A stretch of DNA of 64,000 nucleotides from a virus. The position numbers and the translations under genes are program-made. Below are positions 24,981 to 63,870 of this stretch, one piece after another; position 1 is the first letter of the stretch; every line of letters starts with the position of its first letter. Location: the IMG/VR virus record IMGVR_UViG_3300023084_000003. One strand, 5' to 3'. Below the pieces are notes generated by a model. It made no database searches, was not told where the DNA came from, and was given only the letters and a program-made list of their open reading frames with translations.

Positions 24981-25202
24981 TCATACTACAATATCAACGA
25001 ATTGTCCCTGTGGTTTCTCATCAATCACTCGACCAGCATGGTCGTAACGGGTCCATTGAACGGTTTCAACCCATGTCACTCCAGTCGGTGTTTCAAGATG
25101 TTTCGTTTGTGTTACCTTAACACCATGAACAGTAGTATTAGTGGTGTAGTAATTACTTGTTGTAATCTGTGGCATGATGCCATATACTTCTACGTTATTC
25201 AT
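24981..25202 (-). CDS. Hypothetical protein
   Basis: ORF coupled to the gp44 stop codon. Confidence 0.5.
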   Translation of the reverse strand: MNNVEVYGIMPQITTSNYYTTNTTVHGVKVTQTKHLETPTGVTWVETVQWTRYDHAGRVIDEKPQGQFVDIVV

Positions 25203-26497: not shown

Positions 26498-27160
26498 TTA
26501 TCCTTTCTGATAAGTCGACTTAGTATCAATTGCCACGAAGTACGTGACGTCCGTACCCTTGAACTCAGAGATTCCCTTTGCGCAAAGAGAAACTTTGTAA
26601 TCCTGAGGCAAGAGCTTAAGATTATCGGTTTTAATGATAATCTTAAATTCATCAGATGTAGTGCCGATTTCAACACCATAATCATCAGAATTTTGATTGT
26701 TGCTATCAATAGCTTTCAACCAGATTTTCCCTTCGGTCCCTACAAAGGCTACCTCAGAGAATTGTAACACACCTGCAGCCTTAAGAACAGACTGTAGGTC
26801 TTCCCAAGAAACATCAACAACTACATCCAGAGATGGCAGTTGAATCTCTTTTTCGGGAGCTGCATGAATCATTGATATGTCAGCGTAAACATATTTCGTC
26901 TTACGACGACCATCGTTGATCATAAAGTATTTATCATGAAACTCTACGTCGGGATCCTTGTAAAGTGATAAAATTGACAAAAATCTTGACAAATCATAGA
27001 TACATGCTTGAGATGGAATCTGATCTGGAATAGTTGCAGACGCAACCAATGTCTTTTCTGGTGTTACTGTTTTAAGTACACCGCCGGGTTTCATAAGAAT
27101 CGACTTGTTGATAGTCGAAAAACTCTTAAGAATGGTAAGAGTACGTTCACTAAACTTCAT
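26498..27160 (-). CDS. gp45: Sliding clamp gp45
   Basis: MKFSERTLTILKSFSTINKSI..IYDLSRFLSILSL..ENLKLLP-like DNLKLLPQDYKV. Confidence 0.95.
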   Translation of the reverse strand: MKFSERTLTILKSFSTINKSILMKPGGVLKTVTPEKTLVASATIPDQIPSQACIYDLSRFLSILSLYKDPDVEFHDKYFMINDGRRKTKYVYADISMIHAAPEKEIQLPSLDVVVDVSWEDLQSVLKAAGVLQFSEVAFVGTEGKIWLKAIDSNNQNSDDYGVEIGTTSDEFKIIIKTDNLKLLPQDYKVSLCAKGISEFKGTDVTYFVAIDTKSTYQKG

Positions 27161-27186: not shown

Positions 27187-28086
27187 TTATGTATTAATTT
27201 TACTACGTTTTTTGGATTTTGTCAACTGTTTTTTATTGGCATAAGTTTTACGATTGCTTTTACTGTCTGCGGTGGCTGACACACCGAGAGAACCAATAGC
27301 AGCCATATTACCTTTAAAGATATAAGTGCCAATGTGATTGAGGTGCATCCAAGGGCACATAATCACTTTCATACCGATGTCACGGGCTTTCCTACAGAAG
27401 AAGTAATCCTCTGATAGATAACGACGCGATTCCGGATCAATTACACAGTCAAAGAACGCTGTGATATCTCGCGAACCATCAAACTTGTCCGTACGAACAT
27501 GATCTGGTTTGTACTGAAGTTCAGGATAGGCATCGCGATATTTCTCAAGTGTTTCTCGTGGAATACACATAAAGCCTGTACCACCCTCACCAATCTCAAG
27601 TGGTTCACCAACATTAAATGTATCTAATTTCTTAACAGGATTAAATACATAGTCTGCTGTATAGTTATCAAGCTCGAATGGATTTTCGTCACCTTTACCA
27701 AGCTCTGCAGCCTTAGCAACCTTTTCCCACGCGATTGTTTTCTTAGGATAAGGTCCTACAACAATATTATGATTCTCGGTGTCTGCTAGATTTACAGCAA
27801 TTAATCCTAGAACATCTTTAGCATTAAATGCGATGTCTGAATCGATGAATACAAGGTGAGTACAATCAGATCTGAGGAACTCATCTACAACATAATTACG
27901 TGCCCTCTGGATAAGGCTCTCGTTAAAGAGATAATAAAAACGGATAGGAATACCATTTGCTGCACACATCATAGCCAGGTCGTTACAGGACTTAGCATAT
28001 GAGCCTGAGCAGTTACCACCGTACATCGGAGTACCGATAAAGAGCTTCTGCTCTTTGAGTTTGTCTAAAGAGATTTCAATTTTCAT
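27187..28086 (-). CDS. GT-A-fold glycosyltransferase-like protein
   Basis: IGTPMYGG..NESLIQRARN..THLVFIDSDIAF (DxD)..GTGFM..YLSEDYFFC. Confidence 0.7.
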   Translation of the reverse strand: MKIEISLDKLKEQKLFIGTPMYGGNCSGSYAKSCNDLAMMCAANGIPIRFYYLFNESLIQRARNYVVDEFLRSDCTHLVFIDSDIAFNAKDVLGLIAVNLADTENHNIVVGPYPKKTIAWEKVAKAAELGKGDENPFELDNYTADYVFNPVKKLDTFNVGEPLEIGEGGTGFMCIPRETLEKYRDAYPELQYKPDHVRTDKFDGSRDITAFFDCVIDPESRRYLSEDYFFCRKARDIGMKVIMCPWMHLNHIGTYIFKGNMAAIGSLGVSATADSKSNRKTYANKKQLTKSKKRSKINT

Positions 28087-28718
28087 ATTTCTACTTGCTC
28101 CATATCATTTTCTGCTCTATGAATAGCCTGAATCCGAAGGATGTCTGCTGCGACATCATGTCTGCTATCATGAGCACTAAATACTTTTTCCCATTGCTCA
28201 GTATCTGCAACGGGCACGAATCCATTCTTTGTTGTAAAGTTAAACTTCGCATCAATAAATGTACGAGTATCACGTATACGCCAGTAAGGAATGTACTCGT
28301 TTAGAAACTTGTCCTTGCCTACGGCCATTGCCATATGATCTAGAATAACTGGGTCAAAACCGTTTGAACGGCTCCACCAGTAATCAACTTTATCTTGAGT
28401 ACGAAGATATCCGATCATCTGCTCAATAAACTGTGGTAGCTTAAGATCATCTGGCTTTGGTTTTAAAAGCTTACGAACTTCTGGTGCTTGCTGTAGCCAC
28501 CAATCAAGATCTGACTTTTGATATTCAAAGTCATAGTTCTTTATTTGATCTTGCAAATCAAGTTTTGCTTTTTGAATGATACCTAAAAGTTCTTGAAAAG
28601 AATAAGGCTCATCAAGAAAGCGATCCCATACAAATGTTGCATAAGAACACTCAATGCCAGGCGCCTTACGAGCACACTGGCCAATTGTTTCAAAGTCTAG
28701 GATAAAGTCAGTTCTCAT
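28083..28718 (-). CDS. DEDDh 3'-5' exonuclease (DexA-like)
   Basis: ILDFET..WSRSNGFD..IRDTRT..HDSRHD. Confidence 0.8.
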   Translation of the reverse strand: MRTDFILDFETIGQCARKAPGIECSYATFVWDRFLDEPYSFQELLGIIQKAKLDLQDQIKNYDFEYQKSDLDWWLQQAPEVRKLLKPKPDDLKLPQFIEQMIGYLRTQDKVDYWWSRSNGFDPVILDHMAMAVGKDKFLNEYIPYWRIRDTRTFIDAKFNFTTKNGFVPVADTEQWEKVFSAHDSRHDVAADILRIQAIHRAENDMEQVEI

Positions 28719-29923
28719 AGAAAAGCCTCAAGTGTAGTAATGTTTTCTTGGTATTCAAGCTTCTGAGTACCATTATACTGCAAAATGTAATCGGTGTCAA
28801 CCATTTTTCTTAGACCTTTAAGTGTTGCTAGAACCTCTGTGGCCATGTCTGTGGCTGTTTGCACAGGGACATTTTGGCAAATATGATTTGCTACCTTAGG
28901 GCCCGCATCGACCAATTCAAAGTCTTCGGGCAAGCCCATGATTGACATAGCTTCTCGGTAATTAATAAATCGATCTTCATCAGGATGAGTAAGCATAGTA
29001 GGATAGTGGCCAACGAAAGCGCCGATACGATCTTTTGGAACAATGACACCTCTTCTCATAATCGACCCACCCTTAGCAAGTTTCTCATGTTTATAGTGGC
29101 ACTTATCAACTTCTTTCTCAAAACCGTTTGCAGCCATCCAGTCAGCAACTTCATTATAAGTTTTACCTGCTCTTTCGATATAAGAGAAAGAATCCACACC
29201 ACGAGCTGACGTTGGATCTACATCGCGAGAATGCTCTGTATGAGTTTTGCCTCCTTCAATCTCTTCAAGAATGTACTTATAGTACGGGTTGTCGGAAGGC
29301 TTTTTAGTATTGATAGGTTCAGTTTGAAAGTTTGATTTTACATTACGAATTAATTCTTCGATTGGTGTGTACTCACGATTGTAGTATTCAAAGATTGGTA
29401 CGCCGTTATCTCGTTTCCAGAAGAAATAAAATGAGCGTTCTCGTACCTGTGGAACACCATGAAGTAGAGATCTAGTCCGGTATACACTCATCGTATATCC
29501 ATTGTCCTTACCAATCTGTTTCAATTGATTACGAACATTAGTTCCAATCTTACCAGCAAATCCTGGAGCGTTCTCGCCCCAGAAACAGTCTGGTCTATAT
29601 TCACCAAGAATATACTTTGCAGTCTCAATCATCCATTTGTTGTTTTCGTTGTCGTCACCGTATCCATGTGACATCATTGATAAACCAGCGCATGGACACA
29701 CTGATGATACAACATTTGCTCTTTCGCCTGGCGGTGGCCTATGTCCTTTATCTAGAACATAATATGGAATCTTGTTGTCGTAATAATTTAGAATATGTTT
29801 GTCATTACCAGCAAAAGGTTCATATGACATAAAATGAATTGGAGGTGCACCAAAGGCTCGATGGGAACCAATAGTTTCACCTCCAATTAGTGGTACGATA
29901 CTTGCGTGGGTAATATCACTCAT
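28715..29923 (-). CDS. C5-cytosine methyltransferase-like protein with atypical motif I
   Basis: Motif IV PCAGLS, VI GENAPG, VIII PQVRER, IX/X HP..RFINYREAMSIMGLP..QNVPV; motif I reads PLIGGE instead of FxGxG. Confidence 0.75.
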   Translation of the reverse strand: MSDITHASIVPLIGGETIGSHRAFGAPPIHFMSYEPFAGNDKHILNYYDNKIPYYVLDKGHRPPPGERANVVSSVCPCAGLSMMSHGYGDDNENNKWMIETAKYILGEYRPDCFWGENAPGFAGKIGTNVRNQLKQIGKDNGYTMSVYRTRSLLHGVPQVRERSFYFFWKRDNGVPIFEYYNREYTPIEELIRNVKSNFQTEPINTKKPSDNPYYKYILEEIEGGKTHTEHSRDVDPTSARGVDSFSYIERAGKTYNEVADWMAANGFEKEVDKCHYKHEKLAKGGSIMRRGVIVPKDRIGAFVGHYPTMLTHPDEDRFINYREAMSIMGLPEDFELVDAGPKVANHICQNVPVQTATDMATEVLATLKGLRKMVDTDYILQYNGTQKLEYQENITTLEAFL

Positions 29924-30921
29924 GCTAAAAACTTTCTCACTGTTGAGAGCGCTGTGCTCACAGCCTGATGCATATCAAGATAGGCATACAAACCGCAGCG
30001 ACCGATAAAGGTCATATGCTCTGGTATTTCGGCTTTATATTTTTTGTATAGCTCTCGGTTCTTACCATCGCGATCTTTTACTGGATAATAACGTTCATAG
30101 TTATTCTCAGAGTAATCGCATGGTTCCTCGAACGTTAGCGTTGTGATATATTTATTATCGCCGTGACAGGGAATATTCTTCCATTCAGTAACACGAGTCT
30201 TTGGGCCGTGATGAGTAAAGTTTACAGTAGCGGTTGGTAATGCCCGTGGAATCGGCAGGCTTACAGTCTCAAACTTGATTGAACGATATGGAAGCTTATC
30301 ATATTTCCATTCAAACCATTCATCAATTGGCATAGAATTAAACACATGATCGTATTCTTTATCCATATGATAATTATATTCAGTATTTAAAGATACAGTT
30401 ATATTGTGGTGAGTGAGAATGTTCTCAACCATTTTAGTATAGCCATGCCGTGGCATGAATTGTATCTTATCATTTGGAAAGTATTCTTCGTTGTAATCAT
30501 CACGAATAGGAACTCGATTGATAATATCAGGATTCAACTGATCAAGTTCGACACCCCACATCTTCTTGGTATAAGGTCTGAAGAATACGTCGAGAACATT
30601 CTCCTCACCGACAATATCTTTTGTTTCACGATTTACTGGTAATGTGACGTATTGTCCATCCGAGAGTTGAGCTTTAACTTTGTGCCGATACTCAACCCAC
30701 TCAGTAAACTGTGAAAGCCATTCAAATACTTCTTCATTATTAGTATGAAATAGATGAGGACCATACTTATGAACTCGAATGCCATGTTCATTCTCATAAT
30801 CATATGCATTACCGGCTACGTGATCTCGTTTATCAATTACATCTACATTATGTCCTGCTCTTGCAAGCTCACGAGCAACCACACAACCTGATAGACCCGC
30901 ACCTACTACTAAATACTTCAT
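29920..30921 (-). CDS. glf: UDP-galactopyranose mutase
   Basis: VVGAGLSG, HVAGNAYD, VHKYGPHLFHT, RVTEWK, RYYP, GRCGLYAYLDMHQAV. Confidence 0.93.
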   Translation of the reverse strand: MKYLVVGAGLSGCVVARELARAGHNVDVIDKRDHVAGNAYDYENEHGIRVHKYGPHLFHTNNEEVFEWLSQFTEWVEYRHKVKAQLSDGQYVTLPVNRETKDIVGEENVLDVFFRPYTKKMWGVELDQLNPDIINRVPIRDDYNEEYFPNDKIQFMPRHGYTKMVENILTHHNITVSLNTEYNYHMDKEYDHVFNSMPIDEWFEWKYDKLPYRSIKFETVSLPIPRALPTATVNFTHHGPKTRVTEWKNIPCHGDNKYITTLTFEEPCDYSENNYERYYPVKDRDGKNRELYKKYKAEIPEHMTFIGRCGLYAYLDMHQAVSTALSTVRKFLA

Positions 30922-32015
30922 GCTGCTAATACTCTCTCAAGCTCGTTTCTTTGAATGCTCTGATCCAAAGGATGGTTATCATATAGAGCATCTCGCTGAG
31001 CTTTGGCAGTAGCTTGCAATTGAGTAAGATCCATTGCTTCTACGTCTTGTACTCGAAGTCCAGCAAGACCCTCATCTTTATAATACACCATCATTTCTGG
31101 TTTGTCACCAATAATAATAGAACCGGCGTCAGCAACCTGCAGTGGGCGTGCTCGCCACCACCCAGATCCGGCATGGAAGTATCCGGGCATTAGACAGCCC
31201 CATTGTTGTTCGAATACTTTTACCATTTCCGGTTCGGTTTTACGCTCTGACTTATATTTACCACGCTTTGCGCCATAGTAAACAATCTCCCACTTCCAAT
31301 CGTCAGGTTGCTGCGCCTTGAGCCATTTTCGCGTTTTCTCTTGAACAAGAGACGCAAAATTCCATTTCATTTCTTTTTCTGGTGTATCACCAAAGAAACT
31401 ATCCAAACCAACACTACCTGTTCCATAACCGTTGTCTGCACGACGATTTAGATGATAAGGATTTGGATTATATGTGTAAACGTTTTCTTCTTTCCAGCCA
31501 AGTTCTAGTGTTGACATATCACCACCTGCAAAGGCGCTTACAAGCAAACGATTCTCTTTACTGGTGATAATGTTACAAGCATCGATATATTGTTCTTTAT
31601 ATGACGCTACAGTTTCTTTATCTTCTACACCTTGCCATAGATCAAAGAGATACTGGCGGAATACACCTTCATCGTTTGCTTCGAGCTTCTCTTTATATGT
31701 TTCAATAGTGCTGTAGATCTGTTTAAACTGCCAATCGTCAAAAGCTAAGATGCAGTTTGGGCGAGCATGTACGGCATACAGTCCGGACCATAGGAATTGA
31801 CAGAAGGCCTGGATGCTGTGAATGTATACCACTACCTCATCATAGTGATCTAGGTTCTCGCCTAGTCTGACAGGCCGCTGTTCAACCTCATATCCCATAT
31901 CTTCAAGGCAACGAATGAGTGAATAGTGAGATGGCACAACCTGAAGTTGTTGCTGCAGAAAGAAGTCTTTCGTACACTGCAGCTTATTCATACCTGTTAC
32001 AAGGATTTTTTTCAT
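30918..32015 (-). CDS. GT-B-fold glycosyltransferase, candidate DNA (hmC) glycosyltransferase
   Basis: Rossmann-like start MKKILVTGM; C-terminal WWRARPLQVADAGSIIIGD resembles the GT-B/T4 beta-glucosyltransferase C-terminal motif; location between glf and the hydroxymethylase. Confidence 0.6.
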   Translation of the reverse strand: MKKILVTGMNKLQCTKDFFLQQQLQVVPSHYSLIRCLEDMGYEVEQRPVRLGENLDHYDEVVVYIHSIQAFCQFLWSGLYAVHARPNCILAFDDWQFKQIYSTIETYKEKLEANDEGVFRQYLFDLWQGVEDKETVASYKEQYIDACNIITSKENRLLVSAFAGGDMSTLELGWKEENVYTYNPNPYHLNRRADNGYGTGSVGLDSFFGDTPEKEMKWNFASLVQEKTRKWLKAQQPDDWKWEIVYYGAKRGKYKSERKTEPEMVKVFEQQWGCLMPGYFHAGSGWWRARPLQVADAGSIIIGDKPEMMVYYKDEGLAGLRVQDVEAMDLTQLQATAKAQRDALYDNHPLDQSIQRNELERVLAA

Positions 32016-32377
32016 TTCGACTCCATATATCTTTTACATTCTTTAAGTTTCATCTCTTCATATTCAATATCATTCAATAGTCTATTTAGTGGTGAAGGAT
32101 GAGGCATAACAAAGTGTTCAATACCTAGTCTATTTAGCGTTTCTGACACGAAGTTGCCGAGAGCAATAACTCTTTTATAACCATTAATATAACATAGTAG
32201 AGTCTCTTTGTCAACCATAGATTGATTGTAAGGTCCGGTTTCGTGAATAACATTGGTAAATGCATAGTACCTTATACCGAGGTGATCCATCCACCGATTC
32301 AATCTTTTAATAGTAGGACTCTGCTGATGTGCAGGGCCGTTTGAAGGATTTATACCAACTACAATCATATCAATCAT
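32012..32377 (-). CDS. Minimal uracil-DNA-glycosylase-superfamily protein
   Basis: VVGINPS (motif A), FTNV, VIALG, PHPSPLN (motif B). Confidence 0.65.
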   Translation of the reverse strand: MIDMIVVGINPSNGPAHQQSPTIKRLNRWMDHLGIRYYAFTNVIHETGPYNQSMVDKETLLCYINGYKRVIALGNFVSETLNRLGIEHFVMPHPSPLNRLLNDIEYEEMKLKECKRYMESK

Positions 32378-32894
32378 CTAATGTTGTTACTACCACACCT
32401 GCTACTTTATACATGGGAAGTGATTCTTTATACCATACCTCTTCCCAATTACCCTTGTCTGTCTTTGCAGTAGGCATTACAACTCGTTTAATACCAGCTT
32501 GGATAACGCACTTTGTGCATGCTGGGCAAACTGGCAGGCCATAAACATATAGTGTGGCATCCTTTACAGTAACGCCATTATACAAAGCATTCATAAGAGC
32601 ATTCATTTCAGCATGAATTATACGAGGATACTTTTCATCTCGATTGTTGAGTCGTTCATCGCTATCTTCAATACCTCGAGGAAAACCATTGTAACCGGTG
32701 GCAAGGATCCGCCTTTCAGCATTAACAACAACAGCACCTATCTTACTCGACGGATCCTTACTCCAGCCAGAGATGATCTCAGCCATCTCCATGAAACGAC
32801 GATCCCATTTTATATCCTTGGCATCTTCCTCACGCATACGCCGTCTCATGTAATCGTGGTAACTTTCTCGATAATATTCCATTCTACTCATCAT
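32370..32894 (-). CDS. dCMP deaminase
   Basis: SKDPSSKIGAV, GYNGFPRG, HAEMNA, PCPAC-like VCPACTK Zn motif. Confidence 0.92.
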   Translation of the reverse strand: MMSRMEYYRESYHDYMRRRMREEDAKDIKWDRRFMEMAEIISGWSKDPSSKIGAVVVNAERRILATGYNGFPRGIEDSDERLNNRDEKYPRIIHAEMNALMNALYNGVTVKDATLYVYGLPVCPACTKCVIQAGIKRVVMPTAKTDKGNWEEVWYKESLPMYKVAGVVVTTLDD

Positions 32895-33123
32895 CTTTTT
32901 TGTTTAGAAGCTTTTGCTCCATTTGTTCCTTAATATCATGAACTCGTTCTTTTTCAATTAAGTCGATAATCAGATTTGTAAGATCTAGATCTTTCTTGAG
33001 AAAAAACATTCTTTGCTGTATCTTCTCAAGTTGCTTTTGATAGTACTCTAATTCCTTTTCTTTACGCAATCTAGTCTCAATGATATCAGAAATCATTATA
33101 AGTTTGCCGGGCTCATGATCCAT
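32884..33123 (-). CDS. Small coiled-coil protein
   Basis: RKEKELEYY..LTNLIIDLIEKE; operon-coupled. Confidence 0.55.
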   Translation of the reverse strand: MDHEPGKLIMISDIIETRLRKEKELEYYQKQLEKIQQRMFFLKKDLDLTNLIIDLIEKERVHDIKEQMEQKLLNKKDDE

Positions 33124-33818
33124 TATTTCACCAAATTAAAATGTCTTTCATACACGTGCAAATTCATGACTTGCCAGATGAGCATACCTTTTTCAATCTC
33201 ACCGTGTTCACCTGTAACTGCAGCCATTTCATTCCAATTAGAAACAAACTTGTCCATAAGGTATTGTGCCCAAGCATAATCATTCTTATAGCCAAAAACA
33301 ACATCATTAGAACGCATTTGAGATACCATCATCAAGACACCATCACGAATATAGAATGTTTGTGCATTTGTACAGATGAAGTCAGACTTGCCGCCTTCAT
33401 TGAATTCAACCCAGATTGATGGACGGTTGTAAACCATTTGAGCACGGCGGCTGTCTGGATTACACCATAATTCATCAAAGGCCATATAAAATTGTTTGAA
33501 GTACTTATCCGAGAAAACAAGATGGCCATAGTTAGAGTTGATATTGCCATGCTTGTCTGCTGAATATTTCCAAGCTGCGGGTGGATCTTGGTTCTTGCCA
33601 TGAATATCATAGATATTTGTACTTTGGCTTTCATACCAATCCAACTCAGCTTCAATATAAGCTTGATTTGGTATGCCAAAGATAGATGGTTCAGATGCAA
33701 CGAAGTTTGCACCAATCATCTCGATGGTTTTCTGGCCAGTTTTATCGATTGTAAATGCTTCATCCGCGAGCTCACCAATAAAGAACTCACGGATGTCTTT
33801 TACACTATTCATCAACAT
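33123..33818 (-). CDS. gp42: dCMP hydroxymethylase (T4 gp42-like, thymidylate synthase family)
   Basis: NSNYG, SRRA, catalytic DFICT, MRSNDVVFGYKND (Asp at the dCMP-specificity position, as in T4 gp42), NLHVYERHF. Confidence 0.88.
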   Translation of the reverse strand: MLMNSVKDIREFFIGELADEAFTIDKTGQKTIEMIGANFVASEPSIFGIPNQAYIEAELDWYESQSTNIYDIHGKNQDPPAAWKYSADKHGNINSNYGHLVFSDKYFKQFYMAFDELWCNPDSRRAQMVYNRPSIWVEFNEGGKSDFICTNAQTFYIRDGVLMMVSQMRSNDVVFGYKNDYAWAQYLMDKFVSNWNEMAAVTGEHGEIEKGMLIWQVMNLHVYERHFNLVK

Positions 33819-34164
33819 TCGTCACCTGTCGGTTAATTGGACGATTGAAAATATCACGGGAACCGTCTTGGCCCTCGATCTTTTGTCGACAATATGCAAC
33901 AAAGAATGATGCATAGTTGATTAGATCTTTAGCACTATCTTCGAGCGATTCGAAGTTTGGTTCATAGTCTTCGCCACGCATAGCTTCCATAACAGATTTC
34001 ATACGAAGCATTTTGCCATGCATGACATCATGGATCGATTGCACGCCGTTTGGATAGTAATCGGCTTGTTGTACAGTCGAGTTCGGATTTTGATAATCAC
34101 GAGACTTTTTGACTTGGATCTCAGCACACTCGGCTAAGACTTTTGCGGATTCAGGTGTTGACAT
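33805..34164 (-). CDS. Nucleotide-modification-associated domain 1 (Nmad1/DUF1599)-like protein
   Basis: KKSRDYQN..K.LR..ESLEDSAKDLINYASF helical pattern; next to the hydroxymethylase. Confidence 0.65.
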   Translation of the reverse strand: MSTPESAKVLAECAEIQVKKSRDYQNPNSTVQQADYYPNGVQSIHDVMHGKMLRMKSVMEAMRGEDYEPNFESLEDSAKDLINYASFFVAYCRQKIEGQDGSRDIFNRPINRQVTNVDE

Positions 34165-34173
34165 ATTACCTCC

Positions 34174-34902
34174 TTAGATTTTTTCACAACGGGGAAACAG
34201 TTTATGGCCACGCTCTGGCACGTGGAAGTAACCCATAATTGGAATTATACCACGGGAATCATTTTTTGTAAAGGAAAGACTTGAGCGTGCGCCTTTACCA
34301 GATTTTGGCTTTTTCCAATACTGAGTAGTATCATCAAGATTAACCAAAGAAACATGAGCGCCCACGATTTGATATTTATCGTCAAGTTGAAAACGCTTAA
34401 GAAGATGCATAGATACTTTTTCACCAGCGTTAGCGTTACCGGTCCACATGTTAAATTTTTCAAAAGCTTGAGACATGCAGTTTTTGTCTTCGATTTCCGT
34501 ACGGCGCGTATTAGTGTATACCCAATCATAGCCATCTGAAAGATCAACTCGTAAGTCAATACCAGTATTTTTAAGAAGACGGCCGAACAAATTATTGATT
34601 GGCGAGCTGTAAAGTTTAGAAATCTCAGCTGAACGCTGGGACATTGGCAGTGCGTCAAGCTCATCTTTGATAGGATTGTCGTACCAATTAGAAGCAGAAT
34701 CCAATTTTTCGGTATTGAAAATGCGTTGGAATTCTGGAATTATAGAACGAATACCTTCGATAAGAGGAGTGTATTCGCCGTCGGCATTGAATGTTTCTTG
34801 ACCAGATGTTTCTGCGATGTTGTCATCAGCATAATGTAATTGTGATTTTTGTGAAGCCAAGAAGTCGCCAGCAGTAGTAAATTTCATATCGCCCATAAAC
34901 AT
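34174..34902 (-). CDS. Hypothetical protein, possible PD-(D/E)xK nuclease
   Basis: GYDWVY..TEIEDK spacing resembles a restriction-type active site; own early promoter. Confidence 0.4.
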   Translation of the reverse strand: MFMGDMKFTTAGDFLASQKSQLHYADDNIAETSGQETFNADGEYTPLIEGIRSIIPEFQRIFNTEKLDSASNWYDNPIKDELDALPMSQRSAEISKLYSSPINNLFGRLLKNTGIDLRVDLSDGYDWVYTNTRRTEIEDKNCMSQAFEKFNMWTGNANAGEKVSMHLLKRFQLDDKYQIVGAHVSLVNLDDTTQYWKKPKSGKGARSSLSFTKNDSRGIIPIMGYFHVPERGHKLFPRCEKI

Positions 34903-61790: not shown

Positions 61791-62615
61791 TTACTCCTCA
61801 ATTTTAAATAAATTACCAAATGTTTGGCCAGTATTTTTAGGACAACACCAATCGTAATCAAATAGCTGATCTAACGTTGCGTGTTCTCCCTTTAAGTTCC
61901 ACCAGTTACGAACATACTCAAAAGAAACTTGAGCAACTCTTGCTAGCTTAGCATCTGAGTGATCGTGAACTGTAGTTGGAAATCTTTCTACATTGTGATT
62001 AAACAATGGATGAATATGAGTAATACCCAAGCCATATATGATATTCTCGATGGTTGGTTTCATTCTCACGGTTTTCTCTTTATCAAGTCTTAGAAGCAAA
62101 GGCATCCTAAAACGAATATGATTATCATCTAGAAAATAATAATCTACAATTTTCTTAGCATAGCCACGCTTAATAATATAACATTGTAAGCCATGATCCC
62201 ATCCAACTCTATGCCGTGGAGCCATCACTGCCCACCCTTCGTGCATTACACAAAGCTGCAAAGCATCCCATAGAACACCATGTTTTTTTACATAGTCTTC
62301 CCATACGAATGGCCATTGGTCTATTTGATTGAAAAGGCAGTCATCCTCAAAGATAGCAACCATATCTTCATCTGTTTCTTCATACCATTTTTTGATTGTA
62401 AGTAGATGAGATGATGTCGCACCAAAAGGTAAGATTTGGCACTCAGGTGTGCCAGTGATCTTGAGATTAGAATCTTCTAATCGAGGATAAGAACATATTC
62501 TATAGTTGGTTATTCCTAGCTTCTCAAATTCACCAATCATATATTCTCGGCGGTCTTTACTCTCTTCAAGATTGACCACCCAACAGCTGGGAAACCCCTT
62601 CAATTTTGGATGCAT
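61791..62615 (-). CDS. Glycosyltransferase family 25
   Basis: VVNLEESKDRR, GATSSHL, IFEDD motifs. Confidence 0.8.
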   Translation of the reverse strand: MHPKLKGFPSCWVVNLEESKDRREYMIGEFEKLGITNYRICSYPRLEDSNLKITGTPECQILPFGATSSHLLTIKKWYEETDEDMVAIFEDDCLFNQIDQWPFVWEDYVKKHGVLWDALQLCVMHEGWAVMAPRHRVGWDHGLQCYIIKRGYAKKIVDYYFLDDNHIRFRMPLLLRLDKEKTVRMKPTIENIIYGLGITHIHPLFNHNVERFPTTVHDHSDAKLARVAQVSFEYVRNWWNLKGEHATLDQLFDYDWCCPKNTGQTFGNLFKIEE

Positions 62616-62896: not shown

Positions 62897-63379
62897 TTAA
62901 TCCCACAAATTTTCATAATATTTTCCAAATAATCTGAAGCCGTTGCTCATTCGTTCCTGATGCGCCTTCAAGCCGTCACGATCAATCCATTCAAAATCGC
63001 CAATGCCACTATCACTTGGAATATGTGGTCCATAATACTCATCTTCCCAATTGTCTTTTACCTTTTGTTCAAAGGCCCAGATCATTTCATCCATAATCCA
63101 ATCCCAACGATCAAAAAACTTAGGATCAGCTGTACCGTCACCTTCGTATGCACGTTTCCATTTAGCAGTAGGACGCAACTCTTTTGGTACATCACTTGGA
63201 TCTGTATTAGGAGCGCCGTGCTTTGTTTCTTTCAACTGTTTTAGCATAGGCAAGATAATCGGTGCAAGAGTATAATCCATGCTCCAAGTATCATAATCGT
63301 GTATTGCGACTTCTATCTTTTGCGGCCTATCATCTTTATAAGGCCCTATATAAACTTTCATTATATAAACAACTCCCAA
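62897..63379 (-). CDS. Conserved hypothetical phage protein
   Basis: YDTWSMDYTLAPIILPMLKQLK..KHGAP..WDWIMDEMIWAF..GFRLFGKYYENLWD. Confidence 0.7.
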   Translation of the reverse strand: MGVVYIMKVYIGPYKDDRPQKIEVAIHDYDTWSMDYTLAPIILPMLKQLKETKHGAPNTDPSDVPKELRPTAKWKRAYEGDGTADPKFFDRWDWIMDEMIWAFEQKVKDNWEDEYYGPHIPSDSGIGDFEWIDRDGLKAHQERMSNGFRLFGKYYENLWD

Positions 63380-63870
63380 CTTGGATGTTTGATTGTAAAT
63401 TCCATTTGTTTACGTTTACGAACTAATTCCCAGTAACCAGGTCTATATGGTTTATATTTAGGCTTCCAGTCCATCCTGTTTCCTTTAATAGAATTACAAG
63501 GATTGCAGGCTGCTACTATATTGGTCCACTCTGTTTTACCACCACGGCTGAGTGGAACAACGTGATCCATAGTCAAATGCGATCTACTGAACTTATATCC
63601 GCAATACAAACATTTGTACTGATCACGTAAATAAAGGTTAGATTTTGAAAACCTAACCTCTGACTTGGATTTGATATATTGTTTCATCATAATCACAGCG
63701 GGAACTTTGGTTTCCCAAGAGGGGCTCCGGACTAGCCAATCGTCATACCATTCTAACACATCACATTTATCGTGATAAATGTACCGTATGGCTTCTTTCC
63801 AATTAATAACGCTGAGAGGGAGATAGTTGACGGGTTGAGCATTTGCATTAAGAATCAAAACGTCGGACAT
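63361..63870 (-). CDS. HNH endonuclease
   Basis: RDQYKCLYCG..TMDHVVPLSRGG..NIVAACNPCNSIK. Confidence 0.9.
   Translation of the reverse strand: MSDVLILNANAQPVNYLPLSVINWKEAIRYIYHDKCDVLEWYDDWLVRSPSWETKVPAVIMMKQYIKSKSEVRFSKSNLYLRDQYKCLYCGYKFSRSHLTMDHVVPLSRGGKTEWTNIVAACNPCNSIKGNRMDWKPKYKPYRPGYWELVRKRKQMEFTIKHPSWELFI

Follow-up and report, generated by a model that had tools for sequence, protein, structure and literature searches.

We analysed a 64,000-nucleotide (nt) stretch of viral DNA (IMG/VR record IMGVR_UViG_3300023084_000003; the window, in what follows, is this whole stretch), in particular the genes that run from position 34164 to position 27187 on its minus strand. These genes are an early nucleotide-metabolism and DNA-modification operon of a salt-marsh T4-like phage, and on balance we favour the view that the product of the operon is galactofuranosyl-5-hydroxymethylcytosine (galactofuranosyl-hmC). 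In the mechanism that we propose, a dCMP hydroxymethylase of the T4 gp42 type would convert dCMP to 5-hydroxymethyl-dCMP, and hm-dCTP would be incorporated at replication. A phage-encoded UDP-galactopyranose mutase (Glf) would convert host UDP-galactopyranose to UDP-galactofuranose (UDP-Galf), and after replication a 365-amino acid (aa) glycosyltransferase (GT), referred to as GT365, would move galactofuranose onto the hydroxymethyl group to form galactofuranosyl-hmC. The linkage would probably be beta, if GT365 inverts as the T4 β-glucosyltransferase (BGT) does. Meanwhile, a dCMP deaminase would feed dTMP synthesis, an Nmad1 protein may hydrolyse the competing nucleotide, and the modified DNA would be expected to resist host nucleases. 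The hydroxymethylase and Glf steps are grounded in sequence signatures, whereas the transfer and protection steps are drawn from fold, gene linkage and precedent. Three genes are central to this model:

33123..33818, minus strand: candidate gp42-type dCMP hydroxymethylase (5-hydroxymethyl-dCMP synthase; PF00303, E 2e-10; phrog_160, E 5e-41)
30918..32015, minus strand: GT365, a 365-aa GT-B glycosyltransferase and predicted DNA hydroxymethylpyrimidine glycosyltransferase (AF2 model; no Pfam match)
29920..30921, minus strand: Glf, UDP-galactopyranose mutase, short form of 333 aa (PF03275, 173.5 bits)

The putative hydroxymethylase, a thymidylate synthase (TS) homolog, is 47-49% identical to T2/T4-type gp42 versus ~28% to RB69-type enzymes. 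Identity to T2 gp42 was 47.3% over 98% of the length, and ~1000 T4-like records matched at 42-50%. Residue criteria are available for this family: Asp instead of Asn177 specifies dCMP over dUMP, and replacement of Leu143 by an acidic residue provides the water access that leads to a hydroxymethyl product (PMC13326640). According to the same study, the 'hydroxymethylases' of RB69, DLP3, Thanatos and RL38J1 actually form 5-hydroxy-dCMP and are marked by Asn at the position of ThyA Asp169 (PMC13326640). An alignment (A2) was made of E. coli ThyA, T2 gp42, the Thanatos-2 and phiR1-RT enzymes and the window protein. The window protein contains SDFICT and MRSNDVVFGYKND, where T2 gp42 contains SDFMCT and MRSNDVVFGFRND. 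DFICT aligns with APCHA of ThyA, such that the catalytic Cys146 is kept, and the L143D and N177D changes are both present (SDF and KND in alignment A2) in a pattern identical to that of T2 gp42. Asp169 is also kept in the window enzyme (MRSND), whereas the Thanatos-2 (MRSEN) and phiR1-RT (MRSQN) enzymes contain Asn169. The complete Cys146/L143D/Asp169/N177D signature was found in 71 of 71 homologs from related loci. The original prediction from this DNA had called a gp42-type dCMP hydroxymethylase with the dCMP-specifying Asp, and the aligned signature agrees with that call, DFICT and MRSNDVVFGYKND being present as quoted. Because the residues of the gp42 state are in place, including Asp169, the base predicted from this TS homolog is hmC and not 5-hydroxycytosine. 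A 5-hydroxycytosine synthase of the RB69/RL38J1 type was considered for this gene and ruled out, as Asp169 is kept.

Glf matched PF03275 with an E value of 5.8e-51 (cut-off 26.3 bits), its N-terminal part matched NAD_binding_8 (FAD/NAD; E 1e-20), and the D. radiodurans UDP-galactopyranose mutase (UGM) structure 3hdq was matched with an E value of 3.6e-75. The uridine/diphosphate-binding residues are conserved, and the FFxxYTxKxW, RxP, TRxTExK, YYP and GRxGxYxYxDM segments align with those of solved UGMs. In HMMER alignments to 3hdq and 1wam, residues F151, F152, Y155, T156, W160, R174, R280, Y314 and Y349 are identical (K. pneumoniae numbering, from our own count on the 1wam alignment). The protein is shorter than solved UGMs (333 versus 367-400 aa), and its relatives in the same lineage are 329-340 aa; the Glf of phage C48C1 is also a short form. 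Judged by its sequence, Glf looks functional, and the profile score together with the retained substrate-binding residues supports the mutase call of the original prediction.

The AF2 (AlphaFold) model of GT365 (pLDDT 86.6) adopts a GT-B fold with two Rossmann domains in ~350 residues, and superposes on BGT over its full length. T4 BGT, which glucosylates hmC, was the top solved match to this model (Foldseek E 5e-7) and gave a Z score of 17.4 in VIA, with 301 of 344 residues aligned at a root-mean-square deviation of 3.8 Å. The next VIA matches were glycogen synthase (Z 16.9) and the T4 α-glucosyltransferase AGT (Z 15.3), and the arabinosyl-type GT of phage HY126 was also among the structural matches. 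Sequence searches of Pfam and PDB with E values up to 10 returned no match to GT365; hence the earlier GT-B call had no sequence-level support in these databases, and it is the AlphaFold model alone that bears out the fold. More than 690 metagenomic homologs of GT365 were found, and in every examined locus GT365 lies beside gp42-type TS or TET/JBP genes. We consider it likely that GT365 is a DNA hydroxymethylpyrimidine glycosyltransferase.

Co-occurrence of glf, this GT and gp42 across phage genomes had been put forward as a check of the galactofuranose proposal, and the outcome was positive, in three independent genomic contexts. One is the window lineage itself, in which GT365 and Glf are encoded beside gp42 (IMG/VR loci). 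In the second context, a GT365 homolog abuts glf, after motA; this was seen in 19 records from Aeromonas phages, in two from 'Stenotrophomonas' phage IME13 and in Erwinia phage FBB1. The FBB1 and AS-gz genomes carry a gp42-type TS elsewhere (46% identity). The third is represented by phage C48C1, which has the closest cultured homologs of Glf (60%) and of the GT (36%). No TS-family gene and no PF00145 gene was found in C48C1. Instead, a TET/JBP dioxygenase gene (PF12851, E 3e-17) overlaps the start of the GT gene and directly precedes the GT and glf. TET/JBP was likewise upstream of GT and Glf in all 17 of the C48C1-like IMG/VR loci that have upstream DNA. In one of these phage loci (L101:110-8030) the order is gp46-like, TET/JBP, cytidylyltransferase, NAD-dependent epimerase, GT1, GT365-like and Glf. 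As C48C1 is without TS-family and PF00145 genes, its gene content does not decide between hmC and 5-hydroxymethyluracil (hmU), and the base modified in the C48C1-like phages may be either of these candidates. The GT and Glf pair accompanies both known routes to a 5-hydroxymethylpyrimidine in DNA, by gp42 and by TET/JBP. The TET/JBP-GT-glf loci of these C48C1-like T4-type phages are L001:6564-10011 (phage C48C1) and L097-L115. A glf gene was also seen on two unannotated 'Bacteriophage sp.' faecal fragments that are dense in overlapping open reading frames (ORFs).

Several results weigh against galactofuranosyl-hmC as the product. For the GT365 model, the margin of BGT over the remaining GT-B folds is below 1 Z unit in VIA, and an hhalign comparison of the GT365 family with the BGT homolog of phage Muldoon gave a probability of 22% over 44 columns. 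With generic GT-B enzymes within 1 Z unit and an insignificant profile match, the fold by itself is no proof of a DNA substrate, and the assignment of GT365 as a DNA glycosyltransferase draws mainly on gene context. Glf is without ~32 residues of helical domain 2 (positions 138-169 of 3hdq), which leaves the five-helix domain incomplete. Moreover, Glf was present in 48 and absent from 33 of the 81 scorable loci, with GT365 intact. Since Glf is missing from a sub-clade, a phage-encoded furanose donor is optional for the GT365 family. No dCTPase (gp56) or dNMP kinase (gp1) was identified in the window, longer related contigs not having been searched, so that full replacement of cytosine is not established. 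Similarly, a conserved C5-methyltransferase (MTase)-like gene in the operon is hard to reconcile with fully C5-substituted DNA. Finally, two other GTs encoded in the window, a 299-aa GT-A enzyme and a GT25-like enzyme, could consume UDP-Galf instead.

The sub-clade that keeps GT365 without a phage Glf favours an alternative in which GT365 glycosylates hmC with a common pyranose donor, UDP-glucose or UDP-galactopyranose, while Glf provides for a second sugar, another phage GT or the host sugar-nucleotide pool. It is also in favour of a pyranose donor that T4 BGT, the closest fold, uses UDP-glucose, and that other phage GTs are present, including the GT-A enzyme, which resembles GlfT2 among others, and the GT25-like gene product. 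However, Glf abuts or overlaps a GT365 homolog in three very distant lineages and no other GT is so linked. Furthermore, the outgroups are Glf-plus and the Glf-minus loci are nested among them, which suggests secondary loss with fixed GT changes, and a host glf could substitute in the Glf-minus phages. We consider a pyranose donor for GT365 rather unlikely. In a quick tree of GT365, the Glf-minus sequences formed one group nested among Glf-plus sequences, corresponding to a single change (SH-aLRT 84), and no value as low came up in 500 label shuffles; as one event among related sequences, this is no statistical proof of co-evolution. The Glf-minus clade has fixed differences in GT365 at positions 22, 26-28, 160, 188, 221, 289, 291 and 292, several of which adjoin the invariant NPNPY and GWWRxR motifs. 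These changes fit a change of donor after the loss of Glf, and fit reliance on a host glf equally well.

It could also be argued that Glf and the GTs act off DNA, on virion proteins, host lipopolysaccharide or capsule, or a small molecule, and that the DNA contains plain hmC, possibly with some 5-methylcytosine (5mC) made by the MTase-like enzyme. Neither GT matches a DNA glycosyltransferase family at the sequence level, the GT-A and GT-B folds are generic, the 299-aa GT-A is also encoded by phages that do not modify cytosine, and conservation of the C5-MTase-like gene suggests free C5 positions on some cytosines. Yet GT365 and Glf are always found with a maker of 5-hydroxymethylpyrimidine, which is gp42 in two lineages and TET/JBP in the third, where TS is absent. 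In addition, the pair resides in early replication and nucleotide operons rather than among structural genes, and the best structural match of GT365 is T4 BGT. Action off DNA thus appears improbable to us. Less probable still is a mutase that acts on another UDP-sugar, converting UDP-arabinopyranose to UDP-arabinofuranose or using a 2-acetamido sugar, in which case the product would be arabinofuranosyl-hmC or another furanosyl-hmC. The helical-domain deletion in the window Glf is unusual, and arabinofuranose decorates RB69 and DLP3 DNA. Weak turnover of UDP-arabinose is known for some bacterial UGMs, and a homolog from C. jejuni is specific for GalNAc; both facts would be in keeping with another sugar, and 4mo2 was among the structure matches of the window Glf. 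On the other hand, the best Glf matches are bona fide UDP-galactose mutases and the substrate-contacting residues are conserved, RB69-type phages make their arabinose donor by a dedicated pathway without Glf, and Pfam and PHROG revealed no genes for UDP-arabinose supply in the operon.

The pathway to galactofuranosyl-hmC that we favour shares several features with glucosyl-hmC formation in T4 and T2. The hydroxymethylases are of the same type, with 47-49% identity and an identical active-site signature, dCMP deaminase and DexA-like genes are in common, and in both cases the genes form an early operon beside replication genes. The window GT is also a compact GT-B enzyme with T4 BGT as its best solved match. 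In contrast to the T4 and T2 enzymes, the window GT is no sequence-level member of the BGT or AGT families, and whereas T4 takes host UDP-glucose, the window phage encodes Glf next to the GT. The window operon also differs in its additional Nmad1, mini-uracil-DNA glycosylase (UDG) and C5-MTase-like genes.

The original prediction also held that no DNA base modified with galactofuranose had been described. The DNA of RL38J1, a Rhizobium phage of the Pootjesviridae, contains galactose-glucose chains on 5-hydroxycytosine, and the Glf of this phage was proposed to make UDP-galactofuranose (PMC13326640, NAR 2026). The claim has to be narrowed to this extent, as a galactosyl-5-hydroxycytosine with a proposed phage UDP-Galf is on record (PMC13326640); it holds for hmC, on which none has been reported. 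A literature search found no paper that links Glf to hmC or to TET/JBP clusters. That a phage Glf supplies the donor for DNA glycosylation has been published for RL38J1, as a computational proposal concerning 5-hydroxycytosine, and the window system is therefore not a new kind of modification. Both phages combine a phage UDP-galactopyranose mutase with a modified dCMP made by a TS homolog and with DNA glycosyltransferases. However, the RL38J1 enzyme has the D169N change and yields 5-hydroxycytosine, in which the link at C5 is an ether, whereas Asp169 of the window enzyme predicts hmC. No homology of the RL38J1 GTs to GT365 was detectable (no Rhizobium phage was among the GT365 matches), and the RL38J1 glf is far from the TS and GT genes, whereas the window glf overlaps the GT gene.

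RB69 and DLP3 contain arabinofuranosyl-5-hydroxycytosine, for which the D-arabinofuranose donor is made via an isomerase, a kinase and a nucleotidyltransferase, with no mutase (PMC13326640). These T4-like phages resemble the window phage in that they place a furanose, predicted in our case, on cytosine modified at C5 and supply the sugar donor themselves. The two systems differ in that the RB69/DLP3 base is 5-hydroxycytosine, the sugar is D-arabinofuranose, the donor pathway is without a mutase, and the TS subfamily is only ~28% identical. TET/JBP enzymes provide a further route to glycosylated 5-hydroxymethylpyrimidines, in phage clusters and in base J of kinetoplastids. The same GT and Glf pair follows the TET/JBP dioxygenase in C48C1-like phages, whereas the window is without TET/JBP and uses the nucleotide-level gp42 route. 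TET/JBP was sought among the small ORFs at 35.4-38.1 kb of the window, with no Pfam match.

Sugar-decorated cytosines are a main route of T4-like phages past restriction enzymes and CRISPR, and they decide which type IV systems can attack. Of the sugars known so far, glucose occurs on hmC, and arabinofuranose and galactose-glucose, known since 2018-2026, occur on 5-hydroxycytosine. If our model is correct, galactofuranosyl-hmC would be a new base chemistry produced by a new DNA glycosyltransferase family with >690 metagenomic members, and GT plus Glf would constitute a portable two-gene module that plugs into either the gp42 or the TET/JBP route. The model also offers a possible answer to the question, raised in 2010, of how Aeromonas phage 25 protects its hmC DNA (PMC2993671); this phage was listed among the phages with gene 42 but without a known glucosyltransferase (Petrov et al. 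2010, PMC2993671). As cultured phages carry the GT and Glf pair, among them Aeromonas phages 25, AS-gz, phiAS4 and Aes012 and Erwinia phage FBB1, the prediction is directly checkable. Should it be true, a DNA transferase specific for galactofuranose could serve as a labelling tool for hmC.

The operon had been described as tightly overlapping and as ending at the sliding clamp gene, and every gene named in that description was found on the minus strand at the coordinates given for it. Ten genes run from 34164 to 27187 with successive overlaps of 1-14 nt (ORF coordinates), and a gap of 26 nt separates the 299-aa GT-A gene from the gp45 clamp gene downstream. The dCMP deaminase, exonuclease and sliding clamp calls are in agreement with the profile matches given below. 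Besides the three genes listed above, the operon and its downstream boundary consist of the following:

33805..34164, minus strand: 119-aa Nmad1/DUF1599-family protein, candidate nucleotide pyrophosphohydrolase partner (phrog_18404 'hydrolase', E 1e-12)
32884..33123, minus strand: 79-aa protein with no significant family, found in 6 loci, closest relatives only
32370..32894, minus strand: dCMP deaminase, T4 cd-like (PF00383, E 1e-21; phrog_174, E 2e-48)
32012..32377, minus strand: 121-aa mini UDG-superfamily protein with GINPS and HPSPL motifs (below Pfam cut-offs)
28715..29923, minus strand: 402-aa C5-cytosine-MTase-like protein with a variant cofactor region (PF00145, 71.5 bits, cut-off 22)
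28083..28718, minus strand: DexA-like 3'-5' exonuclease (phrog_255, E 7e-30; PF16473, E 1e-9)
27187..28086, minus strand: 299-aa GT-A glycosyltransferase with a DxD motif (AF2 model, pLDDT 83.1)
26498..27160, minus strand: gp45 sliding clamp, downstream boundary (phrog_223, E 5.8e-73)

Inspection of the remainder of the window identified it as part of a T4-like phage, with the gp45 clamp, the gp44/62 clamp loader, regA, the gp5 baseplate hub and wedge proteins. The stretch occurs in salt-marsh metagenomes, and a 62-kb IMG/VR record is 98% identical to it. A megablast search with the operon against GenBank phages gave zero matches. The gene order is kept in 80 IMG/VR loci, in which GT365 identity ranges from 49 to 99%, and reads Nmad1, gp42-type TS, [deaminase], [mini-UDG], GT365, [Glf], MTase-like, [exonuclease], GT-A, clamp. 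The recurrence of the same order in 80 loci argues that the arrangement is not due to chance.

The C5-MTase-like call made for the 402-aa protein is supported by its PF00145 score, well above the cut-off. The match starts at profile position 68, omitting the N-terminal cofactor region. Across 57 distinct homologs there is no variation in CPCAGLS (motif IV), WGENAP (motif VI), QxRxRxF/PQVRERSF (motif VIII) and CQNVP. Motif I is (V/I)PLIGG and not FxGxG, and motif X is CQNV and not GN; these variants are themselves invariant. Wherever a locus extends far enough, the gene is found next to GT365, with or without Glf. A homolog with the same motif I (PL(I/V)GG) and motif X variants is encoded by a stand-alone gene in cyanophage S-TIM5 (L089:7001-8218), in which no hmC genes were found, and the subfamily is thus not limited to hmC phages. 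Stand-alone members of this subfamily were seen in S-TIM5-group cyanophages and in Pseudoalteromonas phage XG4. There are three possibilities: cytosine is replaced only in part, the enzyme has other DNA as its substrate, or its chemistry is different. With regard to the last, the protein may not methylate at all and may use the C6-attack chemistry of its fold to swap or attach a group at the 5-methylene of hmC or glycosyl-hmC, although we regard this as a long shot. If true, the final base would be more complex than galactofuranosyl-hmC, and the enzyme would represent a new enzymatic route to cytosine hypermodification.

The Nmad1-like and UDG-like calls of the original prediction hold at the level of the families and fall short for the window proteins themselves. 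In the case of Nmad1, the window protein matched DUF1599 with an E value of 0.032, below threshold, while 17 of 19 relatives match PF07659 (best E 4.8e-6). In Serratia phage Muldoon (65% identity; L090:4848-5312) and in PS2-type phages, a homolog is encoded immediately upstream of the dCMP hydroxymethylase, and a related domain, annotated as a nucleotide pyrophosphohydrolase, adjoins the dCMP methylase TS homolog in XP12-like 5mC phages, so that the linkage to TS homologs is a recurrent one. A role of the Nmad1 protein in clearing dCTP is plausible. The mini-UDG matched DUF1643 (E 3e-4) and UDG (E 3e-3), both under the cut-off. Its GINPS and HPSPL motifs are conserved, with N10, P11, H93, P94 and N98 invariant in 19 homologs, and its atlas neighbours are viral UDG-like clusters. 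This protein, at about half the size of known glycosylases, joins a MUG/TDG-like GINPS to a UNG-like HPSPL, and in 38 related loci its gene keeps its place after that of the deaminase and before that of the GT. PDB searches with sequences and profiles of the two GTs, the mini-UDG and the Nmad1 family returned nothing usable.

The model of the 299-aa GT-A enzyme matched STIV A197 (E 3e-9), the LH3 GT domain, GlfT2 and COLGALT1 in Foldseek (E 3e-9 to 5e-6), and D82-x-D84 is invariant, as is appropriate for a GT-A fold with a DxD motif. Pfam and PDB sequence searches gave no significant match, and the GT-A call, like that for GT365, is carried by the AlphaFold fold alone. Homologs with 48-53% identity adjoin gp45 in phages phiM12, Cr30 and DLP6 (L093:5001-5858, L094:5001-5978), and others occur in cyanophages and Pelagibacter phages. 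DLP6 is without any TS-family gene, and phiM12 has a canonical-scoring ThyA. The suggestion that a second GT extends the modification to a disaccharide was not sustained, in that GT-A homologs sit by the clamp in phages without a link to hmC, such as DLP6. As the GT-A shows no link to hmC, there is no indication of a disaccharide, and the distribution of its homologs in phiM12, Cr30, DLP6 and cyanophages argues against the GT-A as the second-sugar enzyme. It probably stands outside the DNA pathway, as a lineage-conserved neighbour of the clamp that is independent of cytosine modification.

The other GT is encoded far from the operon:

61791..62615, minus strand: GT25-like glycosyltransferase, 274 aa (phrog_2835, E 9e-31)

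Homologs of this gene were found in marine cyanophages only. We considered the 61791-62615 'glucosyltransferase' as a T2-type beta-alpha-glucosyltransferase and ruled it out, since the protein is GT25-like and common to cyanophages. An HNH endonuclease gene is present nearby, at 63361-63870.

Salt-marsh metatranscriptome contigs from four libraries match the TS, GT365, Glf and MTase-like genes at at least 99% identity, with DNA carry-over being possible. These RNA-library contigs span most of the operon, and uncovered bins carry no meaning; the matches, which may reflect transcription of the operon, lend weak support to our model. A promoter-like site lies ~80 nt upstream of the first operon gene:

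34244..34272, minus strand: sigma-70 type promoter-like site (TTTACA-17-TATAAT with TG), 11 of 12 consensus matches (consensus match only)

Further minus-strand sites with 11 or 12 of 12 matches, again consensus matches only, are located at 34963-34936, 32214-32186, 28800-28772 and 27225-27197. Altogether, the coding strand between positions 25000 and 37000 of the window contains two 12/12 and five 11/12 sigma-70 promoter-like sites, several of them inside upstream genes. This pattern suggests that multiple early promoters may feed the operon, as expected for T4-type early genes.

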